From the NCBI GenBank assembly GCA_002366725.1, contig DFBT01000076.1, positions 1-49,047 on the forward strand: a stretch of 49,047 nucleotides of DNA, in the 5' to 3' direction. Under the pieces are notes generated by a model that made no database searches, had not been told where the DNA came from, and saw nothing but the letters and a program-made list of their open reading frames with translations. Below, one piece after another: positions 27,223 to 49,047 of the stretch. Source of the stretch: a candidate division WOR-3 bacterium UBA3073. GTDB taxonomy: Bacteria; Hydrothermota; UBA3073. Both the position numbers and the translations under genes were made by a program. Position 1 is the first letter of the stretch; each line of letters begins with the position of its first letter.

Positions 27223-28236
27223 TTAAAATTCAAATGAGAGAGACAACCTCTTTGCATTCTGTAGTCTGCCAAAATCCGCATAGGCAACGTCCAGTTTCAC
27301 TGCATAACTTCCAAAACGATGCCTTATGCCGCCTCCAAGAGTGAGTCCCCCTTCGCTATCCTTTAGAAAGAGAGACGAATATCCTGCACGCAGTGAAATC
27401 CTCTTATGGAAGATGTACTCGATACCCAGGTCTATGCTCTCTGTATTATCATTTGGGTGTTTTGCATCGATCGCCAATGTGAGAGTATTACTCTCGTTCC
27501 CTATAACATCCAAAGATATCCCCACCCTGAACATAAGAGGCAGTGACCACCTATCAGTGTGTAAGTCAGCAATTATTCTATCATTATCCCCGAAAAAGTC
27601 GGGGTTGAAATCGTAATATACCAGAATATCCCTTCCGCTGTACCCAATCTTCCCTCCAAAATTTAATATGCTCATACCTATCTTCATATCGTTGAAATCT
27701 GTCTCAAATAGCGTCCCCACATCCACCGCAAAGGTTGATGCACTCATATGCCATATCCTCTGATTTATATACTTCAGGTTAATTCCCACAGAGAATCTGT
27801 CTGTCAGACACCTTGCATAAGACAGTCCAAGAGCAAGGTCTCCTGCAGCAAACATCTCCCCAGTTCCTTCTGAATTTTCTACCGTTCTTACCTTCATCTC
27901 AGGCATTGATAGGGAAGTGACACCCACACCGATATTTCCCCAGCGTGGTGTACAGATGATCACGCCCGCGAAGTCAAAACGCAAACCTGCCAGCCAGCTT
28001 GTATGAATAACTACTGCCTCATTCTTGCTCAATCTCGATACACCGGCTGGATTCCAGTATATAGCAGTTGCATCGTCAGCCACAGCTACAAATGCACCGC
28101 CCATACCAACTGCCCTGGCACCCACGCCTATCTTCAAGAACTGCGCAGCGGTCGTCCCCACCTTAGAAACACCGAACTGTGAGTAGAGAAAGCCAGGCAC
28201 AAATAACAGCACGAGATATGCAAAAAATTTCTTCAT
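27223..28236 (-). CDS. PorV/PorQ-like (FadL-superfamily) outer-membrane beta-barrel, copy 1
   Basis: ATG at 28236 overlaps the stop of the upstream 1080-aa gene (ATGA). Signal MKKFFAYLVLLFVPGFLYSQ. Motif GTTAAQFLKIGVGARAVGMGGAFVAVADDATAIYWNPAG. C-terminus SLSFEF. The track's N-terminal extension to 28344 is an artefact. Confidence 0.7.
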   Translation of the reverse strand: MKKFFAYLVLLFVPGFLYSQFGVSKVGTTAAQFLKIGVGARAVGMGGAFVAVADDATAIYWNPAGVSRLSKNEAVVIHTSWLAGLRFDFAGVIICTPRWGNIGVGVTSLSMPEMKVRTVENSEGTGEMFAAGDLALGLSYARCLTDRFSVGINLKYINQRIWHMSASTFAVDVGTLFETDFNDMKIGMSILNFGGKIGYSGRDILVYYDFNPDFFGDNDRIIADLHTDRWSLPLMFRVGISLDVIGNESNTLTLAIDAKHPNDNTESIDLGIEYIFHKRISLRAGYSSLFLKDSEGGLTLGGGIRHRFGSYAVKLDVAYADFGRLQNAKRLSLSFEF

Positions 28237-31200: not shown

Positions 31201-31475
31201 TCAACTATATGTATAGTATCACCCTCCGAGAGTACCACCTCCGCTGCAACTATTGGTGTTATACCGTCCATATAAGAATGATCAGTTCCCCTTGGCCAGA
31301 CCCCTGATGGGTGTTTTCTCCACCAGGCGACCTCTCCAAAATTCCAGAAGAGGGTCTCCACAAGATTGCCGTTGTGAAGTCCCCGTTTTCTATATTTCCT
31401 GTCACCATGCTCTTCAACAGAGGGCACATCGAGCGCCATCAAAATACCTATTATGATAAGTATTAGCCTATTCAT
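28233..31475 (-). CDS. ~1080-aa secreted protein of unknown function with acidic Ca-loop clusters, an Fn3-like module and a divergent C-terminal sorting-like domain (paralog A)
   Basis: - I prefer the ATG at 31475 (MNRLILIIIGILMAL), with GGAG upstream; the track start at 31547 is TTG.
- Acidic clusters GIDDDGDGRD, DDNLNGLIDENED and DDGIDNDSDWNRETDDVGADGVPGTGDRGEGDGIPSPGEPHFDETDKDESDQ.
- Fn3-like PPDKPELRAVAGDGKVTLYWDD...FEGYRIYRS.
- C-terminus VVPNPY...IRIYTVSGELV...GIYIYHV...GRFAIIK. Confidence 0.8.
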   Translation of the reverse strand: MNRLILIIIGILMALDVPSVEEHGDRKYRKRGLHNGNLVETLFWNFGEVAWWRKHPSGVWPRGTDHSYMDGITPIVAAEVVLSEGDTIHIVEAGYREHYEEDPITGVEYGWQPISGYSNPYEDKIAMSDDPDSWPASWPDKMNEPDDPGWPGSWNGYFGKRTNADQESYFVMDDYCDHGAAFREKFYCDMYDSSRGGLGMRVEVRGFQWSNVLAEDLIFWHYDITNISTTHYDEVAFGMYVDCGVGGPDDSNDDNAFYDTEMDITYSWDPDGTGQGGWETGYAGYAFLESPGNPYNGIDDDGDGRDCPGPVIDAGVSLPGSFSAGEQCVLIDYDTYKRSVVSMPDTGLVIQHRGILDRIMPDEVLVEIDWNGMDDNLNGLIDENEDIHTGLKYKDWITGGGLNNLLIDEARDDGIDNDSDWNRETDDVGADGVPGTGDRGEGDGIPSPGEPHFDETDKDESDQIGLTAFDRFYIGHGVEYRFDDVIWERIAYYHFDIGEQYPGNTAFLYGSGPFPLPPGKTERFSLALVFGNDLEDLRRNVEVVQKIYNANYNFARPPDKPELRAVAGDGKVTLYWDDAAEYSEDVFADSIGCEPGAYGWRDFEGYRIYRSTDPAFNDCYTITDGQGNPVLYDPLAQFDIKNDVSGFFPIDVNGVQYYMGDNTGLKHSYADYDVKNGQTYYYAVVSYDRGWAEAGMLPSECTKVIKMDVVGNVTLDKNTVVATPRSPAAGYKNAQVDIEHTKGHGTGDIWIDVMDPLLVKENAYRIVFDDTTHQDTTIYSFYDLGGDSLLFTSTYVEGEDFNPVSDGMRLQVRDDTVAWNDSLTGWVEGDCNLLINVDQLYSSPYRRPGFPTSYEIRIDTFGIDTSYLYSNPQYPTNFTVWDVIDSQKVRYYLWEPPGEVDSLLNAGDYIDIWLWVDDHWERAWRVKFFEPGVDSTVNPIRGDWAYIAIDMPFRSGDVFDIKTNSAYIEEALARSDLDRIAVVPNPYCAAAEWEPRRILASGRGERRIYFIHLPQRATIRIYTVSGELVKVIEHDSFIDNGEEPWGLVSKDGMDIAPGIYIYHVDAPGIGEKIGRFAIIK

Positions 31476-31543
31476 AAAGAGGGCTCCAACATTTGTAGTG
31501 CCAAATATATTTGCATCCCGCCAAGACGGGATGCCTACATAAT

Positions 31544-34198
31544 TCAAAATCTACATGATAGACCTATCTCTACCTTCCTCGGTTCAGAATAGAACTCAGG
31601 TCTGTTCAGAAAATCCTCCAATGTATTTGGACCCTTAACCTCGCTTGTATAATGTGGAATAAGTGAATAGCTTGCCCTTCCTGTGTCGAGATAAACATCC
31701 TCTTCGTTCTTTCTATCGAAGAGATTGTTAACCAAAAGGTTTATTGAAAATATCCCATTAAACAGAGTAAAATCTCTGTGTGCCTTAAGGTCAAATGAAT
31801 AAGTTTCGGGCTTTCTCTCACTGTTCTCAAAGCCAAGGCGTATATTCTGGTATTCAGAGGTATATGGAAACCCACTACCATATCTTCCTATAATCGAGAT
31901 ACCTCCTATATCAGGTTTACCAATATTTAAGGTAAAATTAATAGTATGCGTCTGATCCCAATCTAAAGGCACAACCTGTATCTCACTTTCTCTTGGTGGC
32001 TCACTCTGCTGGTCATAAAATATCGCGTTTGGATCTGAGGCATTTCCTTCCGCTACCTGATAGGTATAGTCGAGGTAAGTAGTGATAAAACCAATAGGCC
32101 GGGTCTTGAGTGAAACAGTAACACCCCTGACATTCCCGTAATCACGATTTACATACCTTGCATATCTATCACCCATTATATAAAGCTCATATATGGCAGT
32201 TCCTACAAGGTTTCTTATATCCTTATAATATGCAGTTAAATCCACTCCAACTAAATCGCCAAACTGTTGCTGGATTCCATACTCATATATGGTCGTCTTC
32301 TGGGGTTCCAGGTCAGCATTGCCCATAAGTGACTTGAGTTCCCCTCCCATCACCTCAAACTCTGGGTTATGATAGAGATACTGAAAAGGAGGAATCTGGA
32401 AGAAATGACCATAGGAAAAGTGAAGAACACCCCTCTCTGTTATTGGGAATGCTATTCCAAGTCGAGGACTTATCTGATGTTTTACACTTGCCTCCCTGTA
32501 CCACACATCCCTCTGCCAGTAAGAGTTGTTCGGGTCCCTTGGGTCGAGTGGAACTATACCGTCGGGGTAAAAATAGTCGTACCTGAATCCTGCGTTTACT
32601 ATCAAATTATTAAACTCCATCTTGTCCTGGATGTAAAAAGCAGCCTCTATAGGGTCGTGTGTGTATCTATTATGTCTCGTTGAGGAGATAGGATAGGGTC
32701 TGGGCTTCCAATCAGTGGTCTCGTCCAGTTGCAACTCAAATTCTTCTAAAGAAAGGGCGTGTCTCCTTGCCTCCAGTCCGCATTTAACCTGATGAGTTCC
32801 AGTTATCTGGGAAGTGATATCAAAATTCCCTGATACGCTTTTTGAAACCCGGTAGTAGTGGTTCATATCACACCCACCTGTATAGAATGCATATGCATTT
32901 CGATTCAATCTTCTGGGATCAACATATCTTTTGTCGAGCGTATCCTCATACACATAGGACTTATAATCTTTTGCACTACTAGCTAACCTCACATTAAAGA
33001 AGGTTCTTGCACCGACAGCCTGCGTGAATGTGAGAAGGTGCATACAGGATTTCTCATACTCTGTAGGGGCTCCATCAGGATCATATTTGAAGAGATGCCA
33101 GTAGGTTCTTTTTTTAAGGTTACCCAACATAAATCCGTATCTGAGTTTTGAGTTGGGGAGGATTTGATATGAAAGGTTGCCGTAAAAAAATTTCTTTTCT
33201 TCTGGATTCATCGGGACGTAACTACTGTCACCCGTGGTCTCAACATACCACTCTGATGGGTCCCCTGACTCAAATTTTGAGGAGTCAGATGGATTGAATA
33301 TTCTCTTGCTATATAACCATCCTCCATTTTTATATAGCCTCGTAGATAAGAAAAAATTTATTCTTTCACCTATTGGTCCGCTTAGGGTTGCCTCTACATT
33401 ATGGTTGCTCAAAGGTTCAAAATGGTGAATATGCTGGAATGTCTCCTCGTGGGTTGAGATGTAATCTCCCGTCCATGTTGATATTTCACCAGAGGGGTTT
33501 CTCCCTCCCTCTTTTGTTACAATGTTAACTACACCCGACATAGCCTTACCGTACTCAGCATTGAATGTCCCACTCACTACCTTCATCTCCTGCACAATGC
33601 TGTTCTCTACCTCCATCATCATCTCTCCAGAGAATGGATCGGTGACAGATACGCCATCTATCATATATACAATCTCGTCAGACCTACCACCCCTGATGTG
33701 GATTTCACCACCACTTCCAACAGTCACTCCTGCCTGTAGTTTTAGAAGATCTTTAAAGCTACCAACGGGCATCTCTTTTATATCCTCGGAACCTAATGTG
33801 GCCTCCGATGAGGTGAGGTCCATTTGTATCAGGGATTTTTCTGCCACAACCGTGATGCCTTCGCCTTCGATAATGGTGGGTTTCAATTTGAAGTCGAGCC
33901 CTGTAGTGAGGTCTGACGACACTTTAACATCCATCACTTGCCTGGCCTCGTATCCTATCATAGATGCCGTGATGGAATACTCACCCGGAGGGACATTCAG
34001 AATGATATAGTTGCCATCAATATCTGTGGCAGCACCCAGCCTGGTGTTTTCTATCACCACATTTACTCCAGACAGCGGTTCGTGTGACTGAAGATCGGTA
34101 ATCCTACCCACTACCTTTCCTGTGACCCCCGCCGAGAGTGTGCTATATAAAGCTATTTGCAGTAGAAATACACCCTTTATGATGGATGAGCCACTCAT
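31544..34198 (-). CDS. TonB-dependent receptor with N-terminal carboxypeptidase-regulatory-like domain, copy 1
   Basis: 884 aa. GKVVGRITD...GVNVVIENTRLGAATDIDGNYIILNVPPGEYSITASMIGY (CarboxypepD_reg-like). TonB-box-like GITVVAEK. Plug IHIRGGRSDEIVYMIDGVSVTDP. Long barrel ending GLSCRF. Confidence 0.85.
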   Translation of the reverse strand: MSGSSIIKGVFLLQIALYSTLSAGVTGKVVGRITDLQSHEPLSGVNVVIENTRLGAATDIDGNYIILNVPPGEYSITASMIGYEARQVMDVKVSSDLTTGLDFKLKPTIIEGEGITVVAEKSLIQMDLTSSEATLGSEDIKEMPVGSFKDLLKLQAGVTVGSGGEIHIRGGRSDEIVYMIDGVSVTDPFSGEMMMEVENSIVQEMKVVSGTFNAEYGKAMSGVVNIVTKEGGRNPSGEISTWTGDYISTHEETFQHIHHFEPLSNHNVEATLSGPIGERINFFLSTRLYKNGGWLYSKRIFNPSDSSKFESGDPSEWYVETTGDSSYVPMNPEEKKFFYGNLSYQILPNSKLRYGFMLGNLKKRTYWHLFKYDPDGAPTEYEKSCMHLLTFTQAVGARTFFNVRLASSAKDYKSYVYEDTLDKRYVDPRRLNRNAYAFYTGGCDMNHYYRVSKSVSGNFDITSQITGTHQVKCGLEARRHALSLEEFELQLDETTDWKPRPYPISSTRHNRYTHDPIEAAFYIQDKMEFNNLIVNAGFRYDYFYPDGIVPLDPRDPNNSYWQRDVWYREASVKHQISPRLGIAFPITERGVLHFSYGHFFQIPPFQYLYHNPEFEVMGGELKSLMGNADLEPQKTTIYEYGIQQQFGDLVGVDLTAYYKDIRNLVGTAIYELYIMGDRYARYVNRDYGNVRGVTVSLKTRPIGFITTYLDYTYQVAEGNASDPNAIFYDQQSEPPRESEIQVVPLDWDQTHTINFTLNIGKPDIGGISIIGRYGSGFPYTSEYQNIRLGFENSERKPETYSFDLKAHRDFTLFNGIFSINLLVNNLFDRKNEEDVYLDTGRASYSLIPHYTSEVKGPNTLEDFLNRPEFYSEPRKVEIGLSCRF

Positions 34199-34228: not shown

Positions 34229-36052
34229 CTATCTTACAAGCAACATCCTGCGTGTTTCGCTAAACCCCTCAGCCTTTATACGATAAAAATAAACACCATT
34301 GGCAACCTTCATGTTACCATCCGTGGTGCCATCCCAGTAGACTGTGTGAATTCCTGCTTCCACATTACCTTCTACCAGTGTCTTTACTACCTGCCCCGTC
34401 AGGCTGTAGACCTTGAGCACAGTATGTGTTTTTCTTGGGAGTTCGTATCTTATTGCGGTCGTCCTGCTGAAGGGATTAGGATAGTTCTGACGGAGCATAC
34501 ATACCTTTGGCCCGGATTCATCTTCCGCTATACCCACTTCTGGTGATAGATATACCTGTCTGTACATATAGTATTTATCGAAGTTTATATCAGCCCACTC
34601 GCATCCCCACCAGGACTTTACATAATCGGAGGTATGCTCATCGAATACATCCCAGGATGAATGGTCCATATCCCATATAACCGGGGCCATCCACACTGAA
34701 TCACCATCCACATATCCCCACATATCTGTATGCAGAACAAGTTCAAGAGAGTAGCCGTGGTCTGGGCCGCATCCGCCAGTATCGGCATGTGTTACAGTTC
34801 CAGGAGGTTCATAGGATTTTCCCTCTACTGCACCACTTGGCACAGATGCACTCAACTCAAGCTTGGCAGTATCCCCAACCACATTGCCGAAGTACATAAG
34901 TTTTACCTCGTGCCTCTCCCCGGGACCTGGTATAACCCAGGGGTCCCTCATCCACAGGAAGAGACCGTCCGCCTCCCAGCCCGGTCCCCACTCACACACA
35001 GAGGAGTCATCCGATACGATCCCAAGGTAAAGGTCTGTACCATCGTGCAGGAATTTGATCGTTGCAGTGCTTGGATCATCCCATTCGTTTAGTGTATCAC
35101 CCCACTGCATCCAATACCAACCAGTCGCTCCCTGACTACCCTTGCCGATGGTCATTGCGGTAGCGTTTTCCCATACATCTTCACTGAGTTGACCGTCTAT
35201 AGTAATACCCTTATCCTCTGGTATCTGGTAGGCATCTACAGTTGTTAGGTCACCGAGTAATAGACACCTCAATTCAGTTCCCCACTCACTCCCCCACCAG
35301 CTCTTGAAATAGTCACAGAGGTCGGGATCGGGAGCTGTCGCATGCTCCGGGACATAAAAGTCCATATCGAATATCATCATAGAGAGCCATACGGAATCAT
35401 ACGGTTCATAAGTGGGATCGAGTATATCAAGGTGAATCACCATCTCAAGTGTATAACCAGAGTCAGGTGCTGTGTTGTCGTTTGTTATAGTACCGGGGAA
35501 TTCGTAGGATGCCCCTTCACCGGAACCTTCAGGACCGTTCATCTCAAATCGAGCGGAGTCACCAACCCCTTCGTTTACATAGAAGAGTTTATACTCAAAT
35601 AGTGCACCACTTTCCCTCATCTTGACCTTCATAAAGAGGCCATCGCCTTCCCATCCGGGGAAACGCTTGCAGACTGATTCGTCGTCCGATTGGAGAGCTA
35701 TATACAGGTCTGTCCCATGATGGAGGAATTTAACAATCGCGGTGGATGTATCAGTGTAACCATCATTCCCATCACCGTTTGCGTCCGGCACTATGTCGCT
35801 TGGTGGATATTCCCAGTTTGTGACTCCAAAGCCAGCATCAACTGGGGTATAGCCGGGTCCGAAGCCCAGATCAAAGAAGTGTCTATCCCAATGGAGCGTA
35901 TCACCCAAATCGAGTCTTCCATCTATCGTTAACTCCTCTGCGGGGTCTCTGCTCATTACCTGCATAGATTGAGGGTCCATATGCCCAACACCAGTGGCTA
36001 TCTGGGCAATCAGAAGAACGGCGCTGCCCACAATTATCCACTTATTCTTCAT
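34229..36052 (-). CDS. secreted protein with two tandem CBM9/DOMON-like modules and a T9SS type-A-like CTD
   Basis: ATG at 36052 follows AAGGAGGTG. There is an internal duplication: ..KFLHHGTDLYIALQSDDESVC..GWEGDGLF..DYFKSWWGSEWG versus ..KFLHDGTDLYLGIVSDDSSVC..GWEADGLF..DYVKSWWGCEWA. C-terminus NYPNPFSRTTAIRYELP...VYSLTGQVV...GVYFYRI...RMLLVR. Confidence 0.75.
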   Translation of the reverse strand: MKNKWIIVGSAVLLIAQIATGVGHMDPQSMQVMSRDPAEELTIDGRLDLGDTLHWDRHFFDLGFGPGYTPVDAGFGVTNWEYPPSDIVPDANGDGNDGYTDTSTAIVKFLHHGTDLYIALQSDDESVCKRFPGWEGDGLFMKVKMRESGALFEYKLFYVNEGVGDSARFEMNGPEGSGEGASYEFPGTITNDNTAPDSGYTLEMVIHLDILDPTYEPYDSVWLSMMIFDMDFYVPEHATAPDPDLCDYFKSWWGSEWGTELRCLLLGDLTTVDAYQIPEDKGITIDGQLSEDVWENATAMTIGKGSQGATGWYWMQWGDTLNEWDDPSTATIKFLHDGTDLYLGIVSDDSSVCEWGPGWEADGLFLWMRDPWVIPGPGERHEVKLMYFGNVVGDTAKLELSASVPSGAVEGKSYEPPGTVTHADTGGCGPDHGYSLELVLHTDMWGYVDGDSVWMAPVIWDMDHSSWDVFDEHTSDYVKSWWGCEWADINFDKYYMYRQVYLSPEVGIAEDESGPKVCMLRQNYPNPFSRTTAIRYELPRKTHTVLKVYSLTGQVVKTLVEGNVEAGIHTVYWDGTTDGNMKVANGVYFYRIKAEGFSETRRMLLVR

Positions 36053-36155
36053 GCCTTTCACCTCCTTTCAAAAATTTCTCTACGGGGATTCAGGAGATCG
36101 TACCTGCTCTTTAACCCCTGTTTCACGCAAGACACTTCAGGAGAACCCGCCATTA

Positions 36156-37151: not shown

Positions 37152-37165
37152 TCTTTCTCTCCTTG

Positions 37166-37179: not shown

Positions 37180-37209
37180 TAAAATATAGTTCTAGTCAAC
37201 TATTCTTGA

Positions 37210-37435: not shown

Positions 37436-40400
37436 CTATCTTATGAGCAGTATCTTTTCTGTGTCCTTTGATTCTCCTCTACCCAACCTTAGAAAGTACA
37501 CACCGTTTGATAGGCGCCTGCCGCTGGAATCCTTACCATCCCATAAGACCTTATATCTACCCGCTTGCTTCTCTTCATTGACCAGGGTTCTTATAAGTTG
37601 TCCTGAAATATTGTATATCTTGAGTGTGGTTAGTATAGAGCTCCTGCCAGTTAGGAAATAATCGATAGCTACTGATTTATTGAACGGGTTCGGGCTGCTT
37701 TGCAAGAGCAGGCATCGATTTATGCTATCTAAAATATCCTCTTCCTCAACGGCGAAAAGGGCGGCAGCAAAGATAATCGGACCACCCGCACCATAGATCT
37801 CCTGACCAATTTGTCCCGACTTTTCCCAACCCTGCCTTAAGTCCTCAAGTGGGACATACATAGATGGAACATTTACTGCACCGTATATGGTGGTCTCTGT
37901 CCAAACTGCCTCTTCAGGTAAAAAAGGTGCCAGAGAATATCGCATAACTGCTGGGGTGTAATCAATAAATCCGCCAATTAAATTATTGAAATACTCCGGA
38001 ATGAGTCCTGAAGTGAGGTTTACATACTCATTTAAATATTCCCAGACCTCATACTGTTCCTTCATCGTGATAACCCCTGCCTCTTGCATGGGACTCATTC
38101 CAAAAAAAGTAAGATAATCTGAAGCGTATCCATAATCACACTCCCAGAGCCAGCAGGCTCTCATTATATTTGCGAGGGGCATATAGCTCATCCTCAAATA
38201 ATCACTGTTGCCTGTGATTTGATATAATCTGGCACAGGCTACCGCACAGGCAGCTGTCATCTGTAACTCATACGCGAGGTTGAAACCTTTCCCAACAATA
38301 TGCTGAATGGACGCCTCTGCTTCGTCAAGATAGAGTTGTTCTTCCTTAAGGTCGTAACATTCCAGCATAAGATAAGCATACCCTCCAGCTACATCTGGCT
38401 CTGAACCGGATAATGCATTGTTGGTGTTGTAATCAAAGAAGACCGGGAATTCATAATTAACATTGTGCGCAAAGTCAATAATCGTTGGAATAGATAGAAA
38501 GAGCAGCAAGTCAGCCATATCACTTCCCATTTTGTCCAGTTTTGCAAGACCAATGGCAAGTTCCATCGTATACCAGCTATCTCCTCTCGTTATACCCTCA
38601 TTAGGATAGTCATTTACAATTGTTTGGTGTGTGGTATTATAAAAATAGGGCAGGATTTGCTCCAGACCATCATCTATAGAAGTTACATCACCATATATCT
38701 CCTCATATTTTTCAATTGCTACAAGCACATCCAATTGCGCAATCAATTCGGCAGAGTCAAAACGGGGGATATTGACATATGCCCTCAAAAAATCAACACC
38801 GTTAACCGCCACCCAGCATCTTGCATCAAGGAGATCGTTCAACTCATAAGATGCCACCTCTTGCCAATTGGTTTCTATAATATCGGGTTTATAAATATGT
38901 TCATAAATTTTTGACAATGAGAAAATGAATCTCTCTGCTATCTCTACCTCAGAGGTGGGCATACCGGGGATTATATAGATATATGTGTCTACAATATCAA
39001 AATTCGTTCCCGCTGGAATAATTGTTGGTGGACCAATAGGCCTTTTATAACCAATACTTCCTCCGGAGGCATCCACTACATATTCGGGTGCCCATCCTGC
39101 TTTAAGCGTGAAGTAATCATTGAGTGTAGAAAAATCCTCGAAGTAGAAGATTGAACTGTTGAGGGTGTCTTCGTAGAGGTAGCAGATGCCGGAGGCGAAT
39201 CTTGCTTGTTTTGTATATCTGGTTATACCACCTGTTGTTAGACATCCGTTGACTCTGTCGTAAAACCAAAGGTCCCTCGGATTATCGATTATCACCGCAG
39301 ACTGATTAGTTGATATATTTGCCTGCCAATTTATCAATCCGGGACTATCTCTATACACCGTGAAGAGAATAGTAAAATCAGCCCAATCTCTTGTACAAAG
39401 AATTGTTATCAAAATTTCATCCTCGGTCTCTGTCGCCGATATATCCTGCACATATTCAGGTTTCATAAGATCGAATAGAGCACCGTGAACAACCCTCGTT
39501 GCCAGTGCCTTCGAGGGTTCTAAAGTGGGATATATAAATATATATCCATCTGTTTCAGTCTTGTCGTATTCAATCGTGTAATCACCCATAGTTATGTGGA
39601 AATGGGTGCTATCCCAGGAGTCGAGAGTCACGGTTTCTTCTCCCGGAGGAGTGTGAATATTACAGATTACCTGAGGGTTTTCACCCTCCACTCCATCAGG
39701 GTCTTCATATGTGACCCTAACATCGTAATCTGTATCAGGGATGAGTCCAATAATAGTTCTTTGAAAGGAAGAATCCACCCTATACATATATCCGTCGTCG
39801 ATCCAACAGGTGACAACCGAGGGCTTATGCTCAAGAATTGCAGTCCCGTTAAGATTTGCATCACCAGAATAGGGTGCTATGACTTTTATTATGTTGGGTC
39901 CCTCTGCCTCTGCAGTGATCGTGCCCGCTGTCATCTTAATATGAGGAAGGAGGATATTGGTTATATACTTTGGGTTTTCACCAACAACTCCATCGGGGTC
40001 GAAATATGTTACCCTTGCGTCGTATTCAAGGCCGGGAGAGAGATCTGTTATCGTCTGTTTATATAAAAAGGGTTGTTTTTCCATAGTAACCTCTGGTTCC
40101 CATTCACTCTCATCTGATAGTTTATAACTCAAGGTTGCATATCCGTCATTGTCTGTATCTCCGGTGTAAGTGGCTTCAACAGTTATTGAATTATATGTGT
40201 GGGTTTCTGAGACTGTCCCCGTAATAGTTTGAGGCTCAGACGAAAGTTTAATATAAAGTTTTGGACGGTAATTGACAACATTATATTCGCTCGATGCAAA
40301 ATCCAGTATCCCACCAGCTAAAGAAACTACCGGCTCACGCAAGACAAACCCAAAATTGCTGTCGGGATAAACCATCCAGTGTTGGCACATATCAGTCAAA

Positions 40401-40975: not shown

Positions 40976-41140
40976 TTGACACCAAAAATACAGTAAAATA
41001 AAAATATCAAAATTCATTCATGGGTAGGTCATCCCGCTATCGGAGGGGTCTCATACAATCTTTCTCGAAGGGGAAAGACTTAAAATCTGTCCCCACAGAG
41101 GGGGTAAAAAAATGGAAGACTGGAACTTGTGCTTACAGAA

Positions 41141-41188: not shown

Positions 41189-42211
41189 TCAGAACTCTAT
41201 TCCCACAGAAATCCTGTGGGTACCACCGAGTCTGTCAAAATTTGCAAAGGCATAGTCTACTTTGAATAAAACCACTCCACCTATATTACCGCGTATACCC
41301 GAACCAAATGTAAGTCCCTCTTCGCTGTCCCGCTTCAATAATGAACTGTAGCCGCCCCTTAAGTACAATAAGTCATTAAAACCATACTCTATTCCCAAGT
41401 TCAGATACTCTGTGTTATCATTTGGATGAACGGCGTCTGTGGCAATAGTTAGACGATTGGTTCTGTTCTTCAGAACATCCATCGCTATCCCAGCCCTGAA
41501 GGCTAAAGGCAACGGCCATTTGTCTGTAACCAGATTGGCTTCAGTCAGTTCATTGTTGCCCATTATTGTTGGATCGATATCATGATACACCATAACATCT
41601 CTCCCGGATAACATCATATCCATGCCAAAATTTGATATGGTCATTCCAATCTTCATATCGTTGAAGTGGGTAATAAATAAAGTCCCGAAATCGACCGCAA
41701 AACTTGAGGCAGTCATATGCCAGACTTTCTCCTGAATGTATTTGGTATTGAAACCAATCGAGAACCTATCGGTCAGATTCCTTGCGTAAGACAGTCCAAG
41801 TGCCATACTGCCAACCGAAAACATCTCCCCGGTTCCTTCTGGTTCATCAACCGTTCTCACAACCATATCTGCAGTATTTAAAGAAGTTAGACTCATTCCG
41901 ATGACGCCATAATCACCCATATAGAATATACCACCTACAAAATCAAAGTTTATGTCAGCCAGCCATTCTATATGGGTAACCGTCATTTCGTTCCTATTCA
42001 ACCTCGATAGTCCTGCTGGATTCCAGTATATAGCAGTGGCGTCATCAGCTACAGCAGCAAAGGCTCCTCCCATACCCATTGCTCGTGAGCCAACCTCGAT
42101 CTCTAAGAAAGGAGCAGCGGTTGTCCCTACCGCAGAGACATTGCGGACAAATTGACTGTAGGATTGACCGACTGTTACAAACACAAGTAGAAAAATAAAA
42201 GTAGTTCTCAT
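41189..42211 (-). CDS. PorV/PorQ-like (FadL-superfamily) outer-membrane beta-barrel, copy 2
   Basis: ATG at 42211 follows GGAGGAGG, 14 nt after the upstream stop. Signal MRTTFIFLLVFVTVGQSYSQ. Motif GTTAAPFLEIEVGSRAMGMGGAFAAVADDATAIYWNPAG. C-terminus SVGIEF. The track's 119-aa N-terminal extension overlaps the upstream gene and is an artefact. Confidence 0.7.
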   Translation of the reverse strand: MRTTFIFLLVFVTVGQSYSQFVRNVSAVGTTAAPFLEIEVGSRAMGMGGAFAAVADDATAIYWNPAGLSRLNRNEMTVTHIEWLADINFDFVGGIFYMGDYGVIGMSLTSLNTADMVVRTVDEPEGTGEMFSVGSMALGLSYARNLTDRFSIGFNTKYIQEKVWHMTASSFAVDFGTLFITHFNDMKIGMTISNFGMDMMLSGRDVMVYHDIDPTIMGNNELTEANLVTDKWPLPLAFRAGIAMDVLKNRTNRLTIATDAVHPNDNTEYLNLGIEYGFNDLLYLRGGYSSLLKRDSEEGLTFGSGIRGNIGGVVLFKVDYAFANFDRLGGTHRISVGIEF

Positions 42212-42225: not shown

Positions 42226-45200
42226 TTATTTTATCACGGCGAACTTGCCAATTTTCTCGCCAATTCCAGGGGCGTCTATGTGATATATATAGAGTCCATA
42301 GGAAATATCCATACCGTCCTTGGATACCAAATTCCATGACTCTGCACCATCCTTCATTGTGCTCTCGTGTTCTATTTTCTTTACCAGATTGCCCCTCACA
42401 GTGTATATGCGAATAGTGCATTTTTGTGGCAGATGTATAAAATCTATCTTTCTTTCTCCTCTGCCAAATTGATAAACATTGGGGGACTCCCAGGAGGCTG
42501 CAACTACATAGGGATTCGGCACCACAGCTATCCTGTCCAGTTCTGCTTTGGCCTTCTCCTTGCTGCAAAACTCTGCTTTGACCACAAATTCGAATACATC
42601 ACCATCCAGCGTATCTCCTTCGGCATCCAACCACTCACCTCTGAAAGGCTTTGTTGTTCGGAGACAGTAAATATCTCCCGGTTGAGGTGGAATGGGGTCC
42701 TCAAGGAAGGTGGTATCAACAACAATGCTGTCATCACCAATATAGGTTGTATCATAAATAGCAGGAGGGCCTGACAGGCGGAGTTCCCATGTTGTTCTAT
42801 AATTAACCACTGAACTGGGATCTTCTACGAGAATAATGACTGCATCCCCCATTGTATACAGAGAGTCTCCATCCTTATCGTCAAAGAGGAATGGCCATTC
42901 CAGACTATCGCCCGTAACATTCCAGATTGAGAAGTTTGTTGGTATTGCCTTATACGACCCAAACAGGGCTATAGAGGTAGAGACGATAGTATCGGAGAAG
43001 ATGAGTTTCATATCAGCGGGATAAAGTGTATTCAGGTTAAAAATTGGATTGGTCTCGCTGGAGAACATTGGGTTAAATCCGACTTCGATTTCGTGGTTGT
43101 TCTGCTTGACAAGCCAGCCAGATAGGGAATCGACAAAGACCGCTGTAGTATCATTGTGGAAATAAACCACCAGTCCATCAAAAAGAGGACTCTCGTCATC
43201 AACGCCACTCACATTCATACCGGTCACCAGTGTCTCTGGTGGTGAAGAAGGGTCATCAGGTAAGGTATCTCCTATAATTGTATAACCAGGAGCCTTGTCA
43301 AGATGCAAAAATGATGTATCGCTGAAAATAACCTTATAATATGCACCATCTTTTACAGACTCTGGAGCGATAAATCCTACTTCGATACTACCTGTTCCTG
43401 GACCCCTGTGTATAATTTCCCCTTCCACAACAGGGGGTGAATAACCAGCAGCAGGGGCATTTGGCGTTACAACAGCAGTATTTACATCCGTCATAGTTAC
43501 ACCCCTTTCATCAATAAATAATGTGGAAGTGCATTCAGTTGGGGCAATACCAATAGGATAACCATCTTCATCGAATAAAACATTCCCAAGGGAATCACGA
43601 GCAATAAATCCCCGATCGTAGGATACAATGGCATAATAATAGGTCTGACCATTATTTACACTCGAATCTACAAATGTGTGTCGCAGTCCTGTATCATCTC
43701 CAAGATTAAAACCTGCTCCATAGACATCAATTAAATGGGGACCTTTTAGTCCATTTTTTAAATCAAATTGTGCGAGGGGTTTTCGAAAAGTTGGATTACC
43801 ATAAGCATCCGTTATTATTCTTGCTTCCAAAAAACTTGGTTCAGTTGAGCGGTAAATTCTATATCCCTCAAAATCATATTCCTGGAGATATCTATCATAT
43901 GAATACTCTGCCCTATCGTCCCAGGAGAGTGTGACCTTTCCATCCCCAGGGATTGCAGTAAGACGAGGCTTGTCTGGTGGTCTTGAAAAATTGTAGTTTG
44001 CATTGTATATTGCTTGAACAGTCTTTGTATTTCTTCTTAAATCGTCCAAATCTTCTCCAAATAGTAGCGCAATGGAAAATCTTTGTGTTTCTCCTGGATG
44101 CAGCGGAAATGTTCCTGATGCGAACCACATCGCAAGATTTACACCTATAAGTTGTTGCTCTTCTGTAGGGGGTACCAATTGGGATAGGAGTTGCCAGACC
44201 GCTTCTTCTTCACTTGGTTTATGCCCCACCTCATGTACCATAAAGATCTTGAATCCGGTTAAGCCAATCTGGTCTGATTCATCTTTATCGGTCTGGTCAA
44301 AATTCGGCTCTCCTAGAGTAGGTATACCATCACCCTCACCTTCATCAGGGCCAAAATAGCCCTCATCTGTAGGTCCGATACCATCTGCTCCAAGGTCGTC
44401 GTTCAGTGGCTCACCGGGGTCCCATACTCCATTCTCATTTCTATCAGTGAATGCATGCCAATCACCGTCCTCATCACCAGACCAGTGCCAACGTACAAAA
44501 GGTACTCCACTTGCTCGAGCTTCTTCATCCAATGCTCCATCCTCCCTGTAGTAACCACAAGAACCATATACCCACCCTCCGGGCCCACTCTCCCTCGTTT
44601 CATCGGTCAACCCGTCATTATCGTTATCTATACCATCCCAGGGATTCCCTGGACTCTCTAAGAAGGCAAATCCTGCTACTCCAGCCTTACCACCCCACTG
44701 ACTTTCGTTGTTGATAGCCCATGCATATGCAAGGTCTATATCTGTATCGTAGCTGCCGCAATCATCACTTCCACCTGGACTAGGCATGGACTGACCCACT
44801 CCCCAGTCTATATAAGACGCAAAGAGAACCTTCTCATAGTCATATGTGCCCTCATTGGTGATTGCAAAATGCCAGAAGATACAATCCTCTGCCAGGACAT
44901 GCGACCATTGAAATCCCCTCACGGCAACCGCCAATCCAAGACCTCGCCGGGTGGTATCGGTAGGATCCGGATAAAAATTCCATCTGGTATCGTAGTCATC
45001 GTCCACCACATAGTAGGTCTCCAAGTCTGCGTTTTTTACACCCTTACCAAAATAGCCATTCCAATATCCTGCCCACTCTGGCTTGTCTGGCCATCGGACT
45101 GGCCAGGATTCGGGGTCATCACTCATTGCCGGGGAATCCTGATAATAGTTGCAATAGCCCGGAAGAGGCCACCAGCCCAAAGGATATCCGTCCTCATCCC

Positions 45201-45531
45201 TATCCACATCCTCCCGATAGTTCACCTCTAAAGGGTGTATAGTATCGCCGTCCTCATCCACGCACTCTGCTTGGACAACAGTTGCTACCCCATCCACATA
45301 GAGATGCCCACTTCCTTTGGGCCATTCTCCAGAATATGGAGTAGCATATTTTGCTATCTCTCCATGATTAAAAAATATTGTTCTTACAAGGTTGCCATCC
45401 ATTATTCCACTTTTATCCCAAAACCTATCGCCTGTGTGAGGAGCAGGATCACGCGGTTGGGCATAGAGAGAGGTAGCCTGCATGAGGAGTGGAATTACCG
45501 AAATTAACAAGATTGTTTTTTTGTTCCTCAT
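42226..45531 (-). CDS. ~1100-aa secreted protein of unknown function with acidic Ca-loop clusters, Fn3-like module and divergent C-terminal sorting-like domain (paralog B)
   Basis: Signal MRNKKTILLISVIPLLMQATSLYAQP, with GGAGA SD. It is colinear with 28233-31475: GIDNDNDGLTDE, GEGDGIPTLGEPNFDQTDKDESDQIGLT, PPDKPRLTAIPGDGKVTLSWDD...FEGYRIYRS. C-terminus VVPNPY...IRIYTVRGNLV...GLYIYHI...GKFAVIK. Confidence 0.8.
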   Translation of the reverse strand: MRNKKTILLISVIPLLMQATSLYAQPRDPAPHTGDRFWDKSGIMDGNLVRTIFFNHGEIAKYATPYSGEWPKGSGHLYVDGVATVVQAECVDEDGDTIHPLEVNYREDVDRDEDGYPLGWWPLPGYCNYYQDSPAMSDDPESWPVRWPDKPEWAGYWNGYFGKGVKNADLETYYVVDDDYDTRWNFYPDPTDTTRRGLGLAVAVRGFQWSHVLAEDCIFWHFAITNEGTYDYEKVLFASYIDWGVGQSMPSPGGSDDCGSYDTDIDLAYAWAINNESQWGGKAGVAGFAFLESPGNPWDGIDNDNDGLTDETRESGPGGWVYGSCGYYREDGALDEEARASGVPFVRWHWSGDEDGDWHAFTDRNENGVWDPGEPLNDDLGADGIGPTDEGYFGPDEGEGDGIPTLGEPNFDQTDKDESDQIGLTGFKIFMVHEVGHKPSEEEAVWQLLSQLVPPTEEQQLIGVNLAMWFASGTFPLHPGETQRFSIALLFGEDLDDLRRNTKTVQAIYNANYNFSRPPDKPRLTAIPGDGKVTLSWDDRAEYSYDRYLQEYDFEGYRIYRSTEPSFLEARIITDAYGNPTFRKPLAQFDLKNGLKGPHLIDVYGAGFNLGDDTGLRHTFVDSSVNNGQTYYYAIVSYDRGFIARDSLGNVLFDEDGYPIGIAPTECTSTLFIDERGVTMTDVNTAVVTPNAPAAGYSPPVVEGEIIHRGPGTGSIEVGFIAPESVKDGAYYKVIFSDTSFLHLDKAPGYTIIGDTLPDDPSSPPETLVTGMNVSGVDDESPLFDGLVVYFHNDTTAVFVDSLSGWLVKQNNHEIEVGFNPMFSSETNPIFNLNTLYPADMKLIFSDTIVSTSIALFGSYKAIPTNFSIWNVTGDSLEWPFLFDDKDGDSLYTMGDAVIILVEDPSSVVNYRTTWELRLSGPPAIYDTTYIGDDSIVVDTTFLEDPIPPQPGDIYCLRTTKPFRGEWLDAEGDTLDGDVFEFVVKAEFCSKEKAKAELDRIAVVPNPYVVAASWESPNVYQFGRGERKIDFIHLPQKCTIRIYTVRGNLVKKIEHESTMKDGAESWNLVSKDGMDISYGLYIYHIDAPGIGEKIGKFAVIK

Positions 45532-45569: not shown

Positions 45570-48287
45570 TTAAAGATCTACAGAAAATCCCAGGATTACA
45601 TGTCTCGGTGCGCAGTAAAAATCAGGTCTTATAAGATATTCTTCTAATGTGTTGATACCACGTACTACGCCGGGACTTGAAATTAGTGTATAACCAGCCC
45701 TGCCCGTGTCTGTATAGACATTCACCTCGTTCATTATATCAAACAGGTTATATACCTTAAGAAATAGGGAGAAATTCGATCCTATTAGTTTAAGATTGTA
45801 GTACGCTCTTAAATCAACATTATACTGAGGGGGTTTCCTTTCGCTATTTTCACGGGCGATGCGAATTCCTTCATGGGATGGTGTGTAGGGAAGTCCGGTC
45901 CCATATCTTCCTATAAGGCTAACTCCCCAAAACTGTGAATAGCCTATAGTTACAGCGCCGTTAAGGGTATGCATCTGATCCCAATCTAAAGGCACCAAGA
46001 ATTTTTCAGGTTCACGGTTTGCCAGGACATCCCAGAATACGGCATTGGGGTCTGATGCATTTCCTTTGGCAATTTGATAGGTATAGTCAAGCGAGGCGTA
46101 CAAGTATTGAGAATATCTACCCTCCAATGCAACAGTTATACCCCGCACATTACCATAGTCCCTGTTAATATATTGTGCATACTTACTTCCTATATAGGTT
46201 TCGTAAATCCTAATTCCCAAAAGATTCCTGATGTTCTTGAAGAAACCAGTCACATCAAGAGATATATTATCGCTCAATTGCTGCTGCAGGCCTATTTCAT
46301 ATATAACTGTTTTTTGGGGTTCCAGATCAGCATTCCCCATCCTGCTTGTAAGTCCAGCAGCATATACTTCGAATTCAGGATCAGTATATATATATTCAAA
46401 TGGAGGAATCTGGAAAAAGTGACCATACGAACCATGTAAAACCCCCCTATCGGTTATGGGATATGCTATTCCAATTCGAGGACTTATCTGGATCCTTGGC
46501 TCTACATCTTCAAACCATGGTTCACCTGTTACTCTTATAGGATTTCCCGGGTCATATGGATTAAGTGTATCTGGGTGTAAAGCATCTTTAGGATTGGGGT
46601 CACGGGGGTCAGTGGGAATTTTCCAATAGGGGTCGAAATAATCAAATCTAACACCGATATTGGCAATCATATTTTTAACCTCAATTTTATCCTGAATATA
46701 GGCGGCGACTTCAAATGGGTAGTTCGTGTACTTATTATGATTGGTGTAATTGATGGGAGGGATATAGGGTTCGAATGGGTGAATCTCCCTTCCTACCTCA
46801 TCCTTCTTGGGCACAATTTCAAACTCGTGAAGGAATAATTTATGTTTCCTCAGCTCTACACCCAGTTTTATCTGATGAGTATTGGTTACCTGGCTTGTGA
46901 TATCAAACTTTCCTATATATGATGTGGTATTTCTGCAAAAATACCGCATCTGGGTACCTCCAGTGCGGAATGCATAGTTACTTGCGTCTTGTAATCGTTC
47001 TGGATCAACATATCTTTTATCAAGAGAATCCTTATAAATGTATTGTCTGTAATCGTGAAAAGAATTTGCAAATTTAAGCTCAAAGAAGGTTTTTGAATTT
47101 ATGACATGATTCCAGTTGAATATATTTGAATAACCCCTATCGTATCGATTATAGTCACCGTCAGGGTTGTATTTAAAGGTATGGTCGTATGCGCGAAAAT
47201 CTCGGCTTTTCCACATCAGGTTGTAACTGAATCTGTCCCCGGGAGAAAGTCGGTAGGTAAATTTCCCATAAAGAGAATTCTTTAGAGTGGGGGCCATAGG
47301 CACCATTGAACTATCACCAGTTGCTCCTATGTACCACTCATCTGGATTGTCTTTTGAGAAATCACAGGAGTCAGAGGCGTTAAAAATTCTCTTACCAAAT
47401 AAGTATCCCTCGTTGTAATATCTCCTTGCTGTAGCATAAAAGGAAAGCTTCTTGCCAAAGATAGGGAAAGGACCACCAAGGGTGGTCTCAATATTGTAGG
47501 TGCTAAATGGATTTATGTGATCTATGTTCATATAGGTTTCAGTATGATTGCTGACATAATCCCCTGTATAAGTAGTGATGCGACCTGACAATTTATTGCC
47601 TCCCTCCCTTGTAACAATATTAACAACTCCCGACATCGCCTGTCCATATTCAGCATTAAAGGTCCCACTTATTACCTGTAATTCCTGGATGACACTGTTC
47701 TCAACATCTACTGCTGCCTCATGAGAGAAGGGATCGGTAATAGAGATGCCGTCAAGCATATACACCACTTCAGAACTCCTACCTCCACGAATGTGTCCCT
47801 CTACTACACCGGCCTGTAGATTAACCAAGTCTTGGAATCCCTCTACGGGCAATGCGTCTATCCTTTCGGCATCAACTACTGCACGGGTAGAAGTTAGGTC
47901 CATTTGAATGAGTTCTCTTTCAGCAACGACAGTGATACCTTCTGCTTCTATAACCGTCGGGTTGGGAGCGAAATCCATGGTGGTGGTAAAATCGACTGCA
48001 ACCTTTATATTTGTTATCTTTACCTCCTGATACCCCATCATTTTCGCAGTCACGGCGTATGTTCCTGGAGGAACATTTAATATCACATAGAAGCCATCAA
48101 GGTCGGAGGCATCACCCAGGGTGGTTTCTTCTACGATGATATTGGCAAAGGGCAGTGCTTCACCGGTCTGGGCATCGGTGACCCTACCGGCTAATTTCCC
48201 CGATGTGCCGGCCCATAAACAGGTGATGCCAGACAGAAGGCATACAATTAAAGAGAAAAACCTGATAAACCTACTTTTACTCTTCAC
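45570..48287 (-). CDS. TonB-dependent receptor with N-terminal carboxypeptidase-regulatory-like domain, copy 2
   Basis: I prefer the GTG at 48287 (VKSKSRFIRFFSLIVCLLSG), preceded by AAGGGGG. The track start at 48332 lies inside a hairpin. GKLAGRVTDAQTGEALPFANIIVEETTLGDASDLDGFYVILNVPPGTYAVTAKMMGY. TonB-box-like GITVVAER. Plug HIRGGRSSEVVYMLDGISITDP. Confidence 0.85.
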   Translation of the reverse strand: MKSKSRFIRFFSLIVCLLSGITCLWAGTSGKLAGRVTDAQTGEALPFANIIVEETTLGDASDLDGFYVILNVPPGTYAVTAKMMGYQEVKITNIKVAVDFTTTMDFAPNPTVIEAEGITVVAERELIQMDLTSTRAVVDAERIDALPVEGFQDLVNLQAGVVEGHIRGGRSSEVVYMLDGISITDPFSHEAAVDVENSVIQELQVISGTFNAEYGQAMSGVVNIVTREGGNKLSGRITTYTGDYVSNHTETYMNIDHINPFSTYNIETTLGGPFPIFGKKLSFYATARRYYNEGYLFGKRIFNASDSCDFSKDNPDEWYIGATGDSSMVPMAPTLKNSLYGKFTYRLSPGDRFSYNLMWKSRDFRAYDHTFKYNPDGDYNRYDRGYSNIFNWNHVINSKTFFELKFANSFHDYRQYIYKDSLDKRYVDPERLQDASNYAFRTGGTQMRYFCRNTTSYIGKFDITSQVTNTHQIKLGVELRKHKLFLHEFEIVPKKDEVGREIHPFEPYIPPINYTNHNKYTNYPFEVAAYIQDKIEVKNMIANIGVRFDYFDPYWKIPTDPRDPNPKDALHPDTLNPYDPGNPIRVTGEPWFEDVEPRIQISPRIGIAYPITDRGVLHGSYGHFFQIPPFEYIYTDPEFEVYAAGLTSRMGNADLEPQKTVIYEIGLQQQLSDNISLDVTGFFKNIRNLLGIRIYETYIGSKYAQYINRDYGNVRGITVALEGRYSQYLYASLDYTYQIAKGNASDPNAVFWDVLANREPEKFLVPLDWDQMHTLNGAVTIGYSQFWGVSLIGRYGTGLPYTPSHEGIRIARENSERKPPQYNVDLRAYYNLKLIGSNFSLFLKVYNLFDIMNEVNVYTDTGRAGYTLISSPGVVRGINTLEEYLIRPDFYCAPRHVILGFSVDL

Positions 48288-48302
48288 TTTTACCCCCTTG
48301 CT

Positions 48303-48333
48303 ATTGCGGGGAGGGGTAACCCCTCCCCGCAAT
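48303..48333 (-). other. 14-bp GC-rich perfect hairpin between the CBM-like gene and TBDR copy 2
   Basis: ATTGCGGGGAGGGG taa CCCCTCCCCGCAAT. On the reverse strand it lies 11 nt after the stop at 48345 and 15 nt before the TBDR GTG at 48287. No U-tract follows. Confidence 0.6.
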
Positions 48334-48344: not shown

Positions 48345-49047
48345 CTATCTCAGGATTAGCATCTTCTGTGTGCTCTGGAAATCATCGGTGGTCAGACGAT
48401 AGAAGTATATCCCATTCGCAACCCTGTTGCCATTCTCTGTTCTACCATCCCACCTTATGGTATAAAGACCAGCCATGTGTTTCTCGTCTACGAGAGTTAT
48501 AACCTTTCTCCCAAGAATATCATATATCGCCAGATTAGCATACGTATCCTTCGGTAGTTGATACCTTATGTTGGTCTCATGGACAAATGGATTGGGATAG
48601 TTCTGTAACAGTCTGGAGGATGCAATTTCATGGCCGTCTTCTTCTTCAATACCAACAACAACTGTAACATCTCTAATTTCGAAGTCGTCGTAATATACTG
48701 TTCCGGTGGGGAATGATGTGAATCTTGCCCTCATGGATACTCCGGCGGCATCCGAAGGAGACATCGCTACAACCTCATACTTTCTCCAATCCTCTGTTGA
48801 GTCGACCTGATCCATATAGAAGAAATTATCACCCAACCAGTTCCACGCATTATCGATTGGTGTACCGTGGAAGCCGACAGTAAAACCAATTCTATCGTCG
48901 TCTCTAATCTGACACCAGTTGCCTGGTAGATAGTGAGGATCGGTGTTGACATCGACCTTCTTCACCCATACAGAAAACAGGTACAGTTGATTTGGCTCGC
49001 AGGGATAGGGTATGGTGTAAAAGACGATCTCATCAGGCAGCGTATCT
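48345..49047 (-). CDS. partial CDS (N-terminus outside window): secreted carbohydrate-binding-module-like protein with T9SS type-A-like CTD
   Basis: The reading frame stays open from 48965 to the window edge (...DTLPDEIVFYTIPYPCEPNQLYLFSVWVKKVDV...). The jelly-roll-like region ends GTVYYDDFEI. C-terminus NYPNPFVHETNIRYQLP...IYDILGRKV...GIYFYRL...KMLILR. Confidence 0.7.
   Translation of the reverse strand, partial: DTLPDEIVFYTIPYPCEPNQLYLFSVWVKKVDVNTDPHYLPGNWCQIRDDDRIGFTVGFHGTPIDNAWNWLGDNFFYMDQVDSTEDWRKYEVVAMSPSDAAGVSMRARFTSFPTGTVYYDDFEIRDVTVVVGIEEEDGHEIASSRLLQNYPNPFVHETNIRYQLPKDTYANLAIYDILGRKVITLVDEKHMAGLYTIRWDGRTENGNRVANGIYFYRLTTDDFQSTQKMLILR

Follow-up and report, generated by a model that had tools for sequence, protein, structure and literature searches.

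A three-gene unit, apparently undescribed, couples a variant type-A-like C-terminal tail to a PorV/PorQ-family barrel gene and a TonB-dependent-transporter-like gene in a candidate division WOR-3 bacterium

Work on type IX secretion system (T9SS) sorting signals and carriers is based almost wholly on two species of Bacteroidota and on two classes of C-terminal tail. PorU and PorZ keep their C-terminal domains (CTDs), by which they are anchored on PorV and PorQ (PMC10202324; PMC12365241), and cognate PorP/SprF-like carriers, encoded directly downstream, serve as the anchor for type-B cargo (PMC12618676). Cognate carriers for type-B CTDs are likewise described in Gorasia 2022 (PMC9143113), as cited in PMC12365241. 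Here we describe a 49,047-nucleotide stretch of DNA (the window) from the candidate division WOR-3 bacterium UBA3073 (contig DFBT01000076.1), which carries two copies, modules A and B, of an apparently undescribed three-gene unit. Each module contains a TonB-dependent-transporter-like gene, a gene for a large protein of about 1100 residues that ends in a variant C-terminal tail, and a gene for an outer-membrane barrel of the PorV/PorQ family. No description of this trio was found in the literature searched, which included the Melioribacter and Caldithrix genome papers and had subscription journals outside its scope. Every long open reading frame (ORF) in the window is on the minus strand, and the two modules comprise the following features.

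45570..48332, minus strand: module B gene 1, TonB-dependent-transporter-like outer-membrane barrel (920-residue ORF from TTG; the true start is possibly further in)
42226..45531, minus strand: module B gene 2, 1101-residue all-beta multidomain protein of an uncharacterised family
42229..42540, minus strand: variant C-terminal tail of paralog B, residues 998-1101 (104 codons)
42448..42507, minus strand: tail insert between strands 1 and 2, residues 1009-1028, VVAASWESPNVYQFGRGERK
41189..42202, minus strand: module B gene 3, PorV/PorQ-family outer-membrane barrel of 337 residues (starts 23 nt past the gene 2 stop)
31544..34198, minus strand: module A gene 1, TonB-dependent-transporter-like barrel of 884 residues (CarboxypepD_reg, Plug and TonB_dep_Rec_b-barrel domains)
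28233..31547, minus strand: module A gene 2, large-protein paralog (1104-residue ORF from TTG; likely start Met25, at window position 31475)
28236..28547, minus strand: variant C-terminal tail of paralog A, last 104 residues
27223..28236, minus strand: module A gene 3, PorV/PorQ-family barrel (ATG overlaps the gene 2 stop as ATGA, 28233-28236)

An earlier note on this DNA had proposed that two distinct classes of tail occur together at the locus, with four proteins ending in classical type-A or FlgD-Ig-like tails and the two paralogs of about 1100 residues sharing a different tail of 104 residues that ends in K. The translations agree with this description of the paralogs. Their tails are 70% identical, compared to 49% for the whole proteins and 33.5% for the variable region. 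The four classical tails, or the proteins that carry them, are found at these positions.

34229..36061, minus strand: protein with a classical type-A tail, its gene lying directly upstream of the transporter gene of module A (tail TIGR04183 44.3 bits)
48345..49047, minus strand: protein with a classical type-A tail, its gene lying directly upstream of the transporter gene of module B and running off the window (TIGR04183 51.2 bits)
37436..37735, minus strand: classical type-A tail of a 1193-residue protein encoded at 37436-41017 (TIGR04183 33.9 bits, PF13860 46.4 bits)
19017..19316, minus strand: classical type-A tail of a 905-residue GH144-like enzyme encoded at 19017-21734 (TIGR04183 43.0 bits)

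All four score above the cutoff of 23 bits for the type-A model TIGR04183, all four also pass PF13860 and PF18962, and all four end in R. When the six C-termini were scored together, the variant tails did not behave as ordinary type-A CTDs. They reached only 14.0 bits (module B) and 17.4 bits (module A) with TIGR04183, over model positions 11-60 of 72, and neither gave a match at E<=10 with PF13860, PF18962 or TIGR04131. Among 31 diverse tails of the family, the best E value with TIGR04183 was 4.3e-4. A type-B identity was rejected based on the lack of a TIGR04131 match and on the score with PF13585 (type-B), which was 16.1 bits for tail B against a cutoff of 27, with no match for tail A.

The variant tails begin with LDRIAVVPNPY, continue through a stretch of about 20 residues containing GRGER.I.FIHLP and then IRIYTV.G.LVK.IEH, and finish with GIGEKIG.FA.IK, the consensus at the C-terminus being GKFA[VI][IV]K. 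The terminal Lys was found in 76/76 tails from genome loci and in 119/120 database homologues. The insert of about 20 residues follows VVPNPY, which forms strand 1, and has the pattern W-E...G-R-G-E-R, with W1014, E1015, G1023, R1024 and G1025 invariant and R1027 near-invariant; it is not present in the four classical tails of the window. Relative to type-A CTD cargo, which uses the general carrier PorV, the variant has a homologous core, a position at the extreme C-terminus, PNP[FY] and G-x-Y motifs and a basic last residue in common, but differs in scoring below every curated cutoff, in the insert after PNPY, in its terminal consensus and in having a barrel of its own.

Two further comparisons place the variant tail within the type-A fold. 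A profile built from the 31 diverse family tails was aligned by hhalign to the four classical tails of the window, giving a probability of 96% and an E value of 4.8e-9 over 54 core columns, which indicates a derived form of the type-A/FlgD-Ig fold rather than an unrelated class. We also generated AlphaFold (AF2) models of the full-length 1101-residue protein and of the tail alone, and searched both for related folds with Foldseek. The tail-only model is a seven-strand sandwich (pLDDT 77), seven being the strand count described for type-A CTDs (PMC12618676). Its best solved match was the CTD of PorZ (5m11; E 8.5e-5, TMq 0.68, 26% identity) and its next solved match the CTD of PorU (6za2). At the sequence level, PorZ and PorU chains were the sole plausible matches of the tail profile among PDB sequences, the top matches being spurious designed WD-repeat proteins, and a single tail sequence gave no match to PDB sequences. 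The insert is predicted to be disordered on its own, with pLDDT<50 at residues 1009-1011 and 1015-1022 of the full model and at residues 13-19 of the tail-only model. The proposal of two classes therefore holds insofar as the variant fails the curated type-A and type-B models, but the classes are not unrelated: the variant tail is a derived subtype of the type-A fold.

The variant tail is closely tied to a barrel gene. The same note had claimed that only the proteins with this tail are followed by a PorV-like gene, and in the window both variant-tail genes are indeed directly followed by a full-length PorV/PorQ-family gene. None of the four classical-tail genes is; what follows them is a GH144-like gene (after 19017), a LacI gene (after 37436) and, in two cases, a TonB-dependent-type barrel gene (after 34229 and 48345). 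Linkage outside the window was examined in both directions. In the forward direction, 80 genome loci were retrieved using the large protein alone as the query; in the reverse direction, 80 metagenome loci were retrieved using the PorV-like protein alone, in the form of a 10-sequence barrel alignment. Each retrieved locus spanned about 19 kb. Among genome loci with at least 1.2 kb of downstream sequence (n=69), a PorV-like gene lay directly downstream of the large-protein gene, on the same strand and with its start within 600 nt, in 67. A homologue of the window's TonB-dependent-type barrel lay directly upstream, ending within 600 nt, in 68 of the 69 genome loci with at least 2.8 kb on that side. 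In the reverse search, a variant tail ended within 700 nt upstream of the barrel gene in 63 of the 67 metagenome loci with enough upstream sequence. The other four have the large protein 1.4-3.5 kb upstream with one gene inserted, so that all 67 carry it within 3.5 kb. There are two exceptions among the genome loci: in L022 a type-A-tail gene is interposed ahead of the barrel gene, and L049 holds a true orphan, described below. The barrel gene starts a median of about 13 nt past the stop of the large-protein gene, and 7 of 48 related loci have a 4-nt ATGA overlap as in module A, which suggests translational coupling. The pairing claimed for the window thus extends across the family. The unit is a gene trio in which the transporter gene is as conserved as the barrel gene, a transporter link that goes beyond the earlier note.

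Some loci carry additional genes next to the trio. In 14 loci the PorV-like gene is followed by a gene of 480-620 codons with a PPIC-type peptidyl-prolyl isomerase (PPIase) domain (e.g. L011:8139-9653), and in two loci a gene of about 465 codons lies between the large-protein and barrel genes and overlaps both (L100:918-2315 and L118:4526-5935). Such a gene may encode a periplasmic chaperone of the module.

The downstream barrels match the PorV/PorQ family model NF033709 (cutoff 90 bits) over model positions 1-326 of 326, with scores of 224.7 bits in module B and 230.6 bits in module A, and the module B barrel also matches PF19572 PorV at 43 bits. Neither is an orthologue of a characterised member by the corresponding models: the scores were 74 (B) and 95 (A) bits against a cutoff of 250 for PorV (NF033710), 91 and 100 bits against 220 for PorQ (NF033711), and 93 and 92 bits against 325 for PorV2 (NF052325). 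No Pfam or NCBIfam match to PorP_SprF was found for the downstream barrels at E<=0.1. The sole solved relative of the barrel was PorV of Flavobacterium johnsoniae (6h3i_F, E 3e-7).

Based on their domain content, the upstream genes are predicted to encode generic TonB-dependent transporters (TBDTs), with matches above cutoff to both PF07715 Plug (27 and 42 bits) and PF00593 (99 and 82 bits). The module B protein, which shares the CarboxypepD_reg, Plug and TonB_dep_Rec_b-barrel domains of its module A counterpart, has a TonB-box-like sequence, GITVVAE, between its N-terminal domain and the plug, and compared to solved TBDTs it matches in the plug region alone. The transporter-like barrels of the two modules are 53% identical. 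With the SusC/RagA model TIGR04056 they scored 29.2 bits (module B) and 70.2 bits against a cutoff of 368, over only the N-terminal ~200 residues. Membership in the SusC/SusD class was rejected on account of this failure and because the large protein lacks SusD features. The module resembles SusC/SusD and RagAB in having a TonB-dependent barrel with an N-terminal CarboxypepD_reg-type domain beside a gene for a surface protein, and in lying within loci that contain glycoside hydrolases, binding proteins and a regulator. It differs from them in that the transporter fails TIGR04056, in that the partner is an all-beta non-lipoprotein rather than a helical SusD, and in that a third gene, for a barrel, is obligatory.

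The large protein belongs to a family for which no model was found. The 1101-residue protein gave no Pfam match at E<=0.1 and no NCBIfam match that reached its curated cutoff, the weak NCBIfam matches of protein and tail being far below cutoff; paralog A (1104 residues) likewise gave no Pfam match. Homologues of the protein form more than 4000 clusters at 90% identity. Among those listed, every source name is 'hypothetical protein' and none has a precomputed Pfam domain. The closest carriers are WOR-3/Stahlbacteria (70-91% identity), the others including KSB1, Calditrichota, Ignavibacteria, Rhodothermales, Marinimicrobia, Fibrobacteraceae, Krumholzibacteriia, Eisenbacteria and Kryptoniota. Every taxon found falls within the Fibrobacteres-Chlorobi-Bacteroidetes (FCB) group. 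The full-length AF2 model (pLDDT 84.4, pTM 0.73) is almost wholly beta, and Foldseek returned domain-level matches alone, namely to FN3 arrays and to the beta-supersandwich found at the N-terminus of GH94, GH116, ExoMA2 and dextran dextrinase; this full-length search matched no catalytic domain.

The family has a Sec signal peptide, typically cut before Gln, and a lipobox was present in 0/117 full-length homologues. The signal peptides of the window protein (45460-45531) and of its homologues usually end in A|Q(P/R)(R/E)PDPN. This agrees with the 'Q-rule' of Bacteroidetes, an N-terminal Gln after signal peptidase I as set out in PMC5837995, though many of the carriers belong to other FCB phyla. 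A SusD identity for the large protein was rejected based on the missing lipobox, the all-beta model and the absence of a Pfam match.

Genes for porU and porV can be adjacent, and we considered whether the large protein is a divergent PorU or PorZ. The idea was rejected. The PorU sortase model NF033707 gave 13.8 bits (cutoff 420) and the PorZ model NF052228 gave 11.8 bits (cutoff 260), both over only the last ~70 residues, and the TM-score of the full model was <0.1 to 6za2 and 5m11, so that the tail alone matches. The large protein has no peptidase C25 domain and no propeller. In the PorZ-PorQ and PorU-PorV pairs of P. gingivalis (Porphyromonas gingivalis), the Ig-like CTD of a surface protein is retained on a 14-strand barrel of the PorV/PorQ family, and the module is comparable in that the best solved matches of the variant tail are the PorZ and PorU CTDs and the barrel is of the same family. 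The differences are that the large protein is neither PorU nor PorZ, that the barrel is orthologous to none of PorV, PorQ and PorV2, and that the module is multi-copy, is found in sugar loci and is accompanied by a transporter gene.

We also determined how the tail is distributed among proteins. A tail-only profile searched against 1.84 billion cluster representatives matched 7846 proteins with E<=1e-3, of which 3019 had E<=1e-10, and in 150/150 of the matches listed the tail formed the extreme C-terminus. Of the top 149 cluster representatives, about 136 either share the large-protein body upstream of the tail or are C-terminal fragments of the large protein. The rest are very short fragments or three proteins of 2200-2400 residues that repeat the Ig core alone. 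These three (P0139, P0151 and P0181) contain 12-15 tandem copies of the core, at profile positions ~32-102, without the large-protein body, and seem to be unrelated repeat proteins built on the same fold. The shared body led us to reject the possibility that the tail is a modular signal found on diverse cargo; it indicates that the tail is a dedicated C-terminal domain of one family, unlike the type-A and type-B CTDs.

The earlier note had compared the locus to the pairing of type-B cargo with PorP/SprF-like genes. Since the linkage holds and the variant tails fail the type-A models, this analogy is apt: as in F. johnsoniae and P. gingivalis, a tail that is not ordinary type-A is paired with a dedicated barrel gene immediately downstream. 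In the family described here the linkage runs both ways. By analogy, the module may also share anchoring on a carrier rather than on lipopolysaccharide. The likeness stops at the partner, which is of the PorV/PorQ family, and at the cargo, the variant tail having the seven-strand type-A fold and being found on one protein family. We group the module with the cognate CTD-carrier pairs of the T9SS, and what is unusual about it is the obligatory link to a TonB-dependent transporter.

From these data we propose, with what we consider about an even chance of being right, that each module is an outer-membrane nutrient-capture unit in which the large protein is retained through its uncleaved tail on the cognate barrel and serves the adjacent transporter. 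The large protein would leave the cytoplasm via Sec, given its signal peptide and lack of a lipid anchor, and would then be translocated by the T9SS. Its tail would be kept, not cut off and exchanged for a lipopolysaccharide anchor as in ordinary type-A cargo, and would hold the protein in permanent contact with the cognate PorV/PorQ-family barrel whose gene lies just downstream, the conserved insert possibly making a partner-specific contact with the barrel. Once docked, the conserved N-terminal half may work with the adjacent TonB-dependent transporter, and the variable C-terminal body may provide substrate specificity for glycans released by the neighbouring type-A-tailed enzymes and binding proteins. 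Such a role would be akin to that of SusD or surface glycan-binding proteins, without lipidation. Each of these steps, from dependence on the T9SS and tail retention to docking and joint action with the transporter, is inferred, by analogy with the PorU and PorZ CTDs, which are kept on PorV and PorQ, and with type-B cargo, which is held on cognate carriers. The proposal as a whole is supported by the homology and fold of the tail, the two-way linkage, the tight coupling of the genes, the transporter gene directly upstream, the confinement of the tail to one family and its slow evolution, as well as by the near-invariant yet seemingly disordered insert, the lack of a lipid anchor, the variable region of the body and the sugar-utilisation context.

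Conservation along the large protein bears upon whether the tail is kept. Residues 51-700 are highly conserved, residues 701-1000 are the least conserved, and the tail block at residues 1001-1050 is the most conserved of all. In 98% of genome pairs the tail evolved at a lower rate than the body, compared to 54% for classical-tail neighbours, a control that sets global against local identities and is only indicative. In the full AF2 model a helix (residues 991-1000) abuts the first tail strand with no obvious flexible linker. These features matter for an alternative that we consider unlikely, in which the tail is a divergent type-A signal and the barrel, instead of a permanent anchor, a dedicated PorV-like shuttle required for exit from the translocon, much as PorP/SprF is for type-B CTDs. 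A sortase would then cleave the tail, the protein being released or anchored to lipopolysaccharide. The homology of the tail core to cleaved type-A CTDs, the conserved PNPY, G-x-Y and terminal K motifs, and the existence of cognate shuttles for type-B CTDs (PMC12618676) are all compatible with such a shuttle, and the gene pairing fits it equally well. On the other hand, a disposable signal is not expected to be the most strongly conserved region of its protein or to change at a lower rate than the body, and the abutting helix and the fact that the nearest solved folds are two retained CTDs point the same way, although all three points are suggestive only.

Several observations weigh against the proposed retention and capture unit. 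The likeness of the tail to the PorU and PorZ models is general among CTDs and not specific to the variant; the PorU model is in fact matched more strongly by the classical tails of the window (E 1.8e-13 to 2.8e-8) than by the variant tails. The rate control described above is no more than indicative. The transporter has diverged strongly from every solved TBDT, so that its transport role is assumed from domain content. Locus L049 contains an orphan (7968-11225), a full-length family member with the variant tail that has no adjacent barrel or transporter gene; its gene is flanked by a type-A-tail gene, an unidentified gene of 828 codons and an ABC ATPase gene, and any barrel partner that it has must be encoded elsewhere. 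The presence of a T9SS is deduced solely from the four type-A tails, no T9SS core gene (sprA/sov, porK-N, porU) having been seen in the window or in the ~19-kb loci.

This last point would also fit a trio that functioned independently of the T9SS. Clusters of genes for a Slam protein, a surface lipoprotein and a TonB-dependent receptor exist in Proteobacteria, and the module is a trio of the same composition, with genes for a transporter, for a surface protein and for a dedicated barrel. By this analogy the PorV-like barrel, perhaps together with the transporter-like barrel, would itself deliver or hold the large protein, and the strict one-to-one pairing, the conserved gene trio and the restriction of the tail to one family agree with such an arrangement. 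We regard it as quite improbable. The surface protein of the module has no lipobox, and the barrel, which gives no DUF560 match, is a full-length member of the PorV/PorQ family, known as T9SS carriers. In addition, the tail is homologous to T9SS CTDs, every module lies among genes with classical T9SS tails, and all taxa found fall in the FCB group, where the T9SS occurs (PMC12421860).

If the trio does act through the T9SS, its tail and barrel could constitute a third tail-carrier pair beside type A/PorV and type B/PorP-SprF and form part of a widespread SusD-free glycan-capture complex, a wider reading that we hold tentatively and place a little below an even chance. It would apply to Ignavibacteria, Rhodothermales, Calditrichota, Marinimicrobia, Fibrobacteraceae, KSB1, WOR-3 and related lineages, in which the module is found. 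This candidate third pair is sharply delimited by sequence, fold and two-way linkage, and comprises thousands of protein clusters across the FCB group. If the reading is true, the module would provide a way to place a substrate-capturing protein beside transporters in lineages that seem to have few SusD-type lipoproteins, as well as an annotation marker for polysaccharide-utilisation loci outside Bacteroidia. The variant tail also offers a natural test of what causes a CTD to be retained as opposed to cleaved.

The surroundings of the modules are rich in genes for sugar use. Positions 17.5-49 kb of the window form a sugar-utilisation locus that includes the two copies of the trio, and its other genes (17591-27154 and 36156-37199) comprise two PF10091 GH144-like genes, a GH94 phosphorylase, a LacI regulator and a sugar ABC transporter made up of three genes. 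One of the PF10091 genes, the GH144-like gene at 19017-21734, also encodes CBM30 and fn3 domains and a type-A tail. The domain content suggests use of a beta-glucan, possibly beta-1,2-glucan. Across the 80 genome loci the recurring neighbours were LacI, sugar-binding proteins and permeases, SSF symporters, GH94, GH3, and CBM4_9 or CBM9 proteins with classical type-A tails. A type-A-tail gene was present immediately upstream of the transporter gene in 45/61 related loci as well as in both modules of the window, and the two such neighbours tested contained CBM4_9 or CBM9. This frequency indicates that the conserved cassette often consists of four genes and combines both kinds of tail. Homologues were found at the same position for 34229-36061 in L040 and for 48345-49047 in L022, L045 and L055. 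The 1193-residue protein at 37436-41017, encoded directly downstream of the module B barrel gene, has no Pfam domain other than its type-A tail.

The sugar context also bears upon another explanation, that the trio forms a complex with a structural or adhesive role or one in outer-membrane biogenesis, and that the sugar genes are incidental. The barrel gives weak matches to BamG (E 0.0045-0.007), a FadL/PorV-like barrel of the Bacteroidota BAM complex that binds BamH through extracellular loops (PMC12578637). That precedent, together with the PPIase-like genes that often follow the barrel gene, lends this explanation some plausibility. However, several copies of the module can share one genome or contig (the window has two, L046 has a tandem pair, and L012 and L039 lie on one contig), the body has a variable region, and LacI, GH, CBM and sugar-transporter genes recur as neighbours. 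Substrate-specific loci fit these features better than a housekeeping machine does, and we consider a biogenesis or structural role very improbable.

Other parts of the window showed features apart from the modules. Scans of the window for Rfam families and tRNAs gave no match. A stretch of about 2.1 kb (10486-12654) has small ORFs only, none of them longer than 125 residues; one of these (11043-11330) has a lipoprotein-like leader and Trp-rich repeats. LpxD (12655-13668) and a 322-residue protein with an OmpH/Skp domain (13699-14667) are preceded by a 649-residue ORF (14719-16668) whose sole Pfam match is a weak one to V_ATPase_I at the C-terminus.

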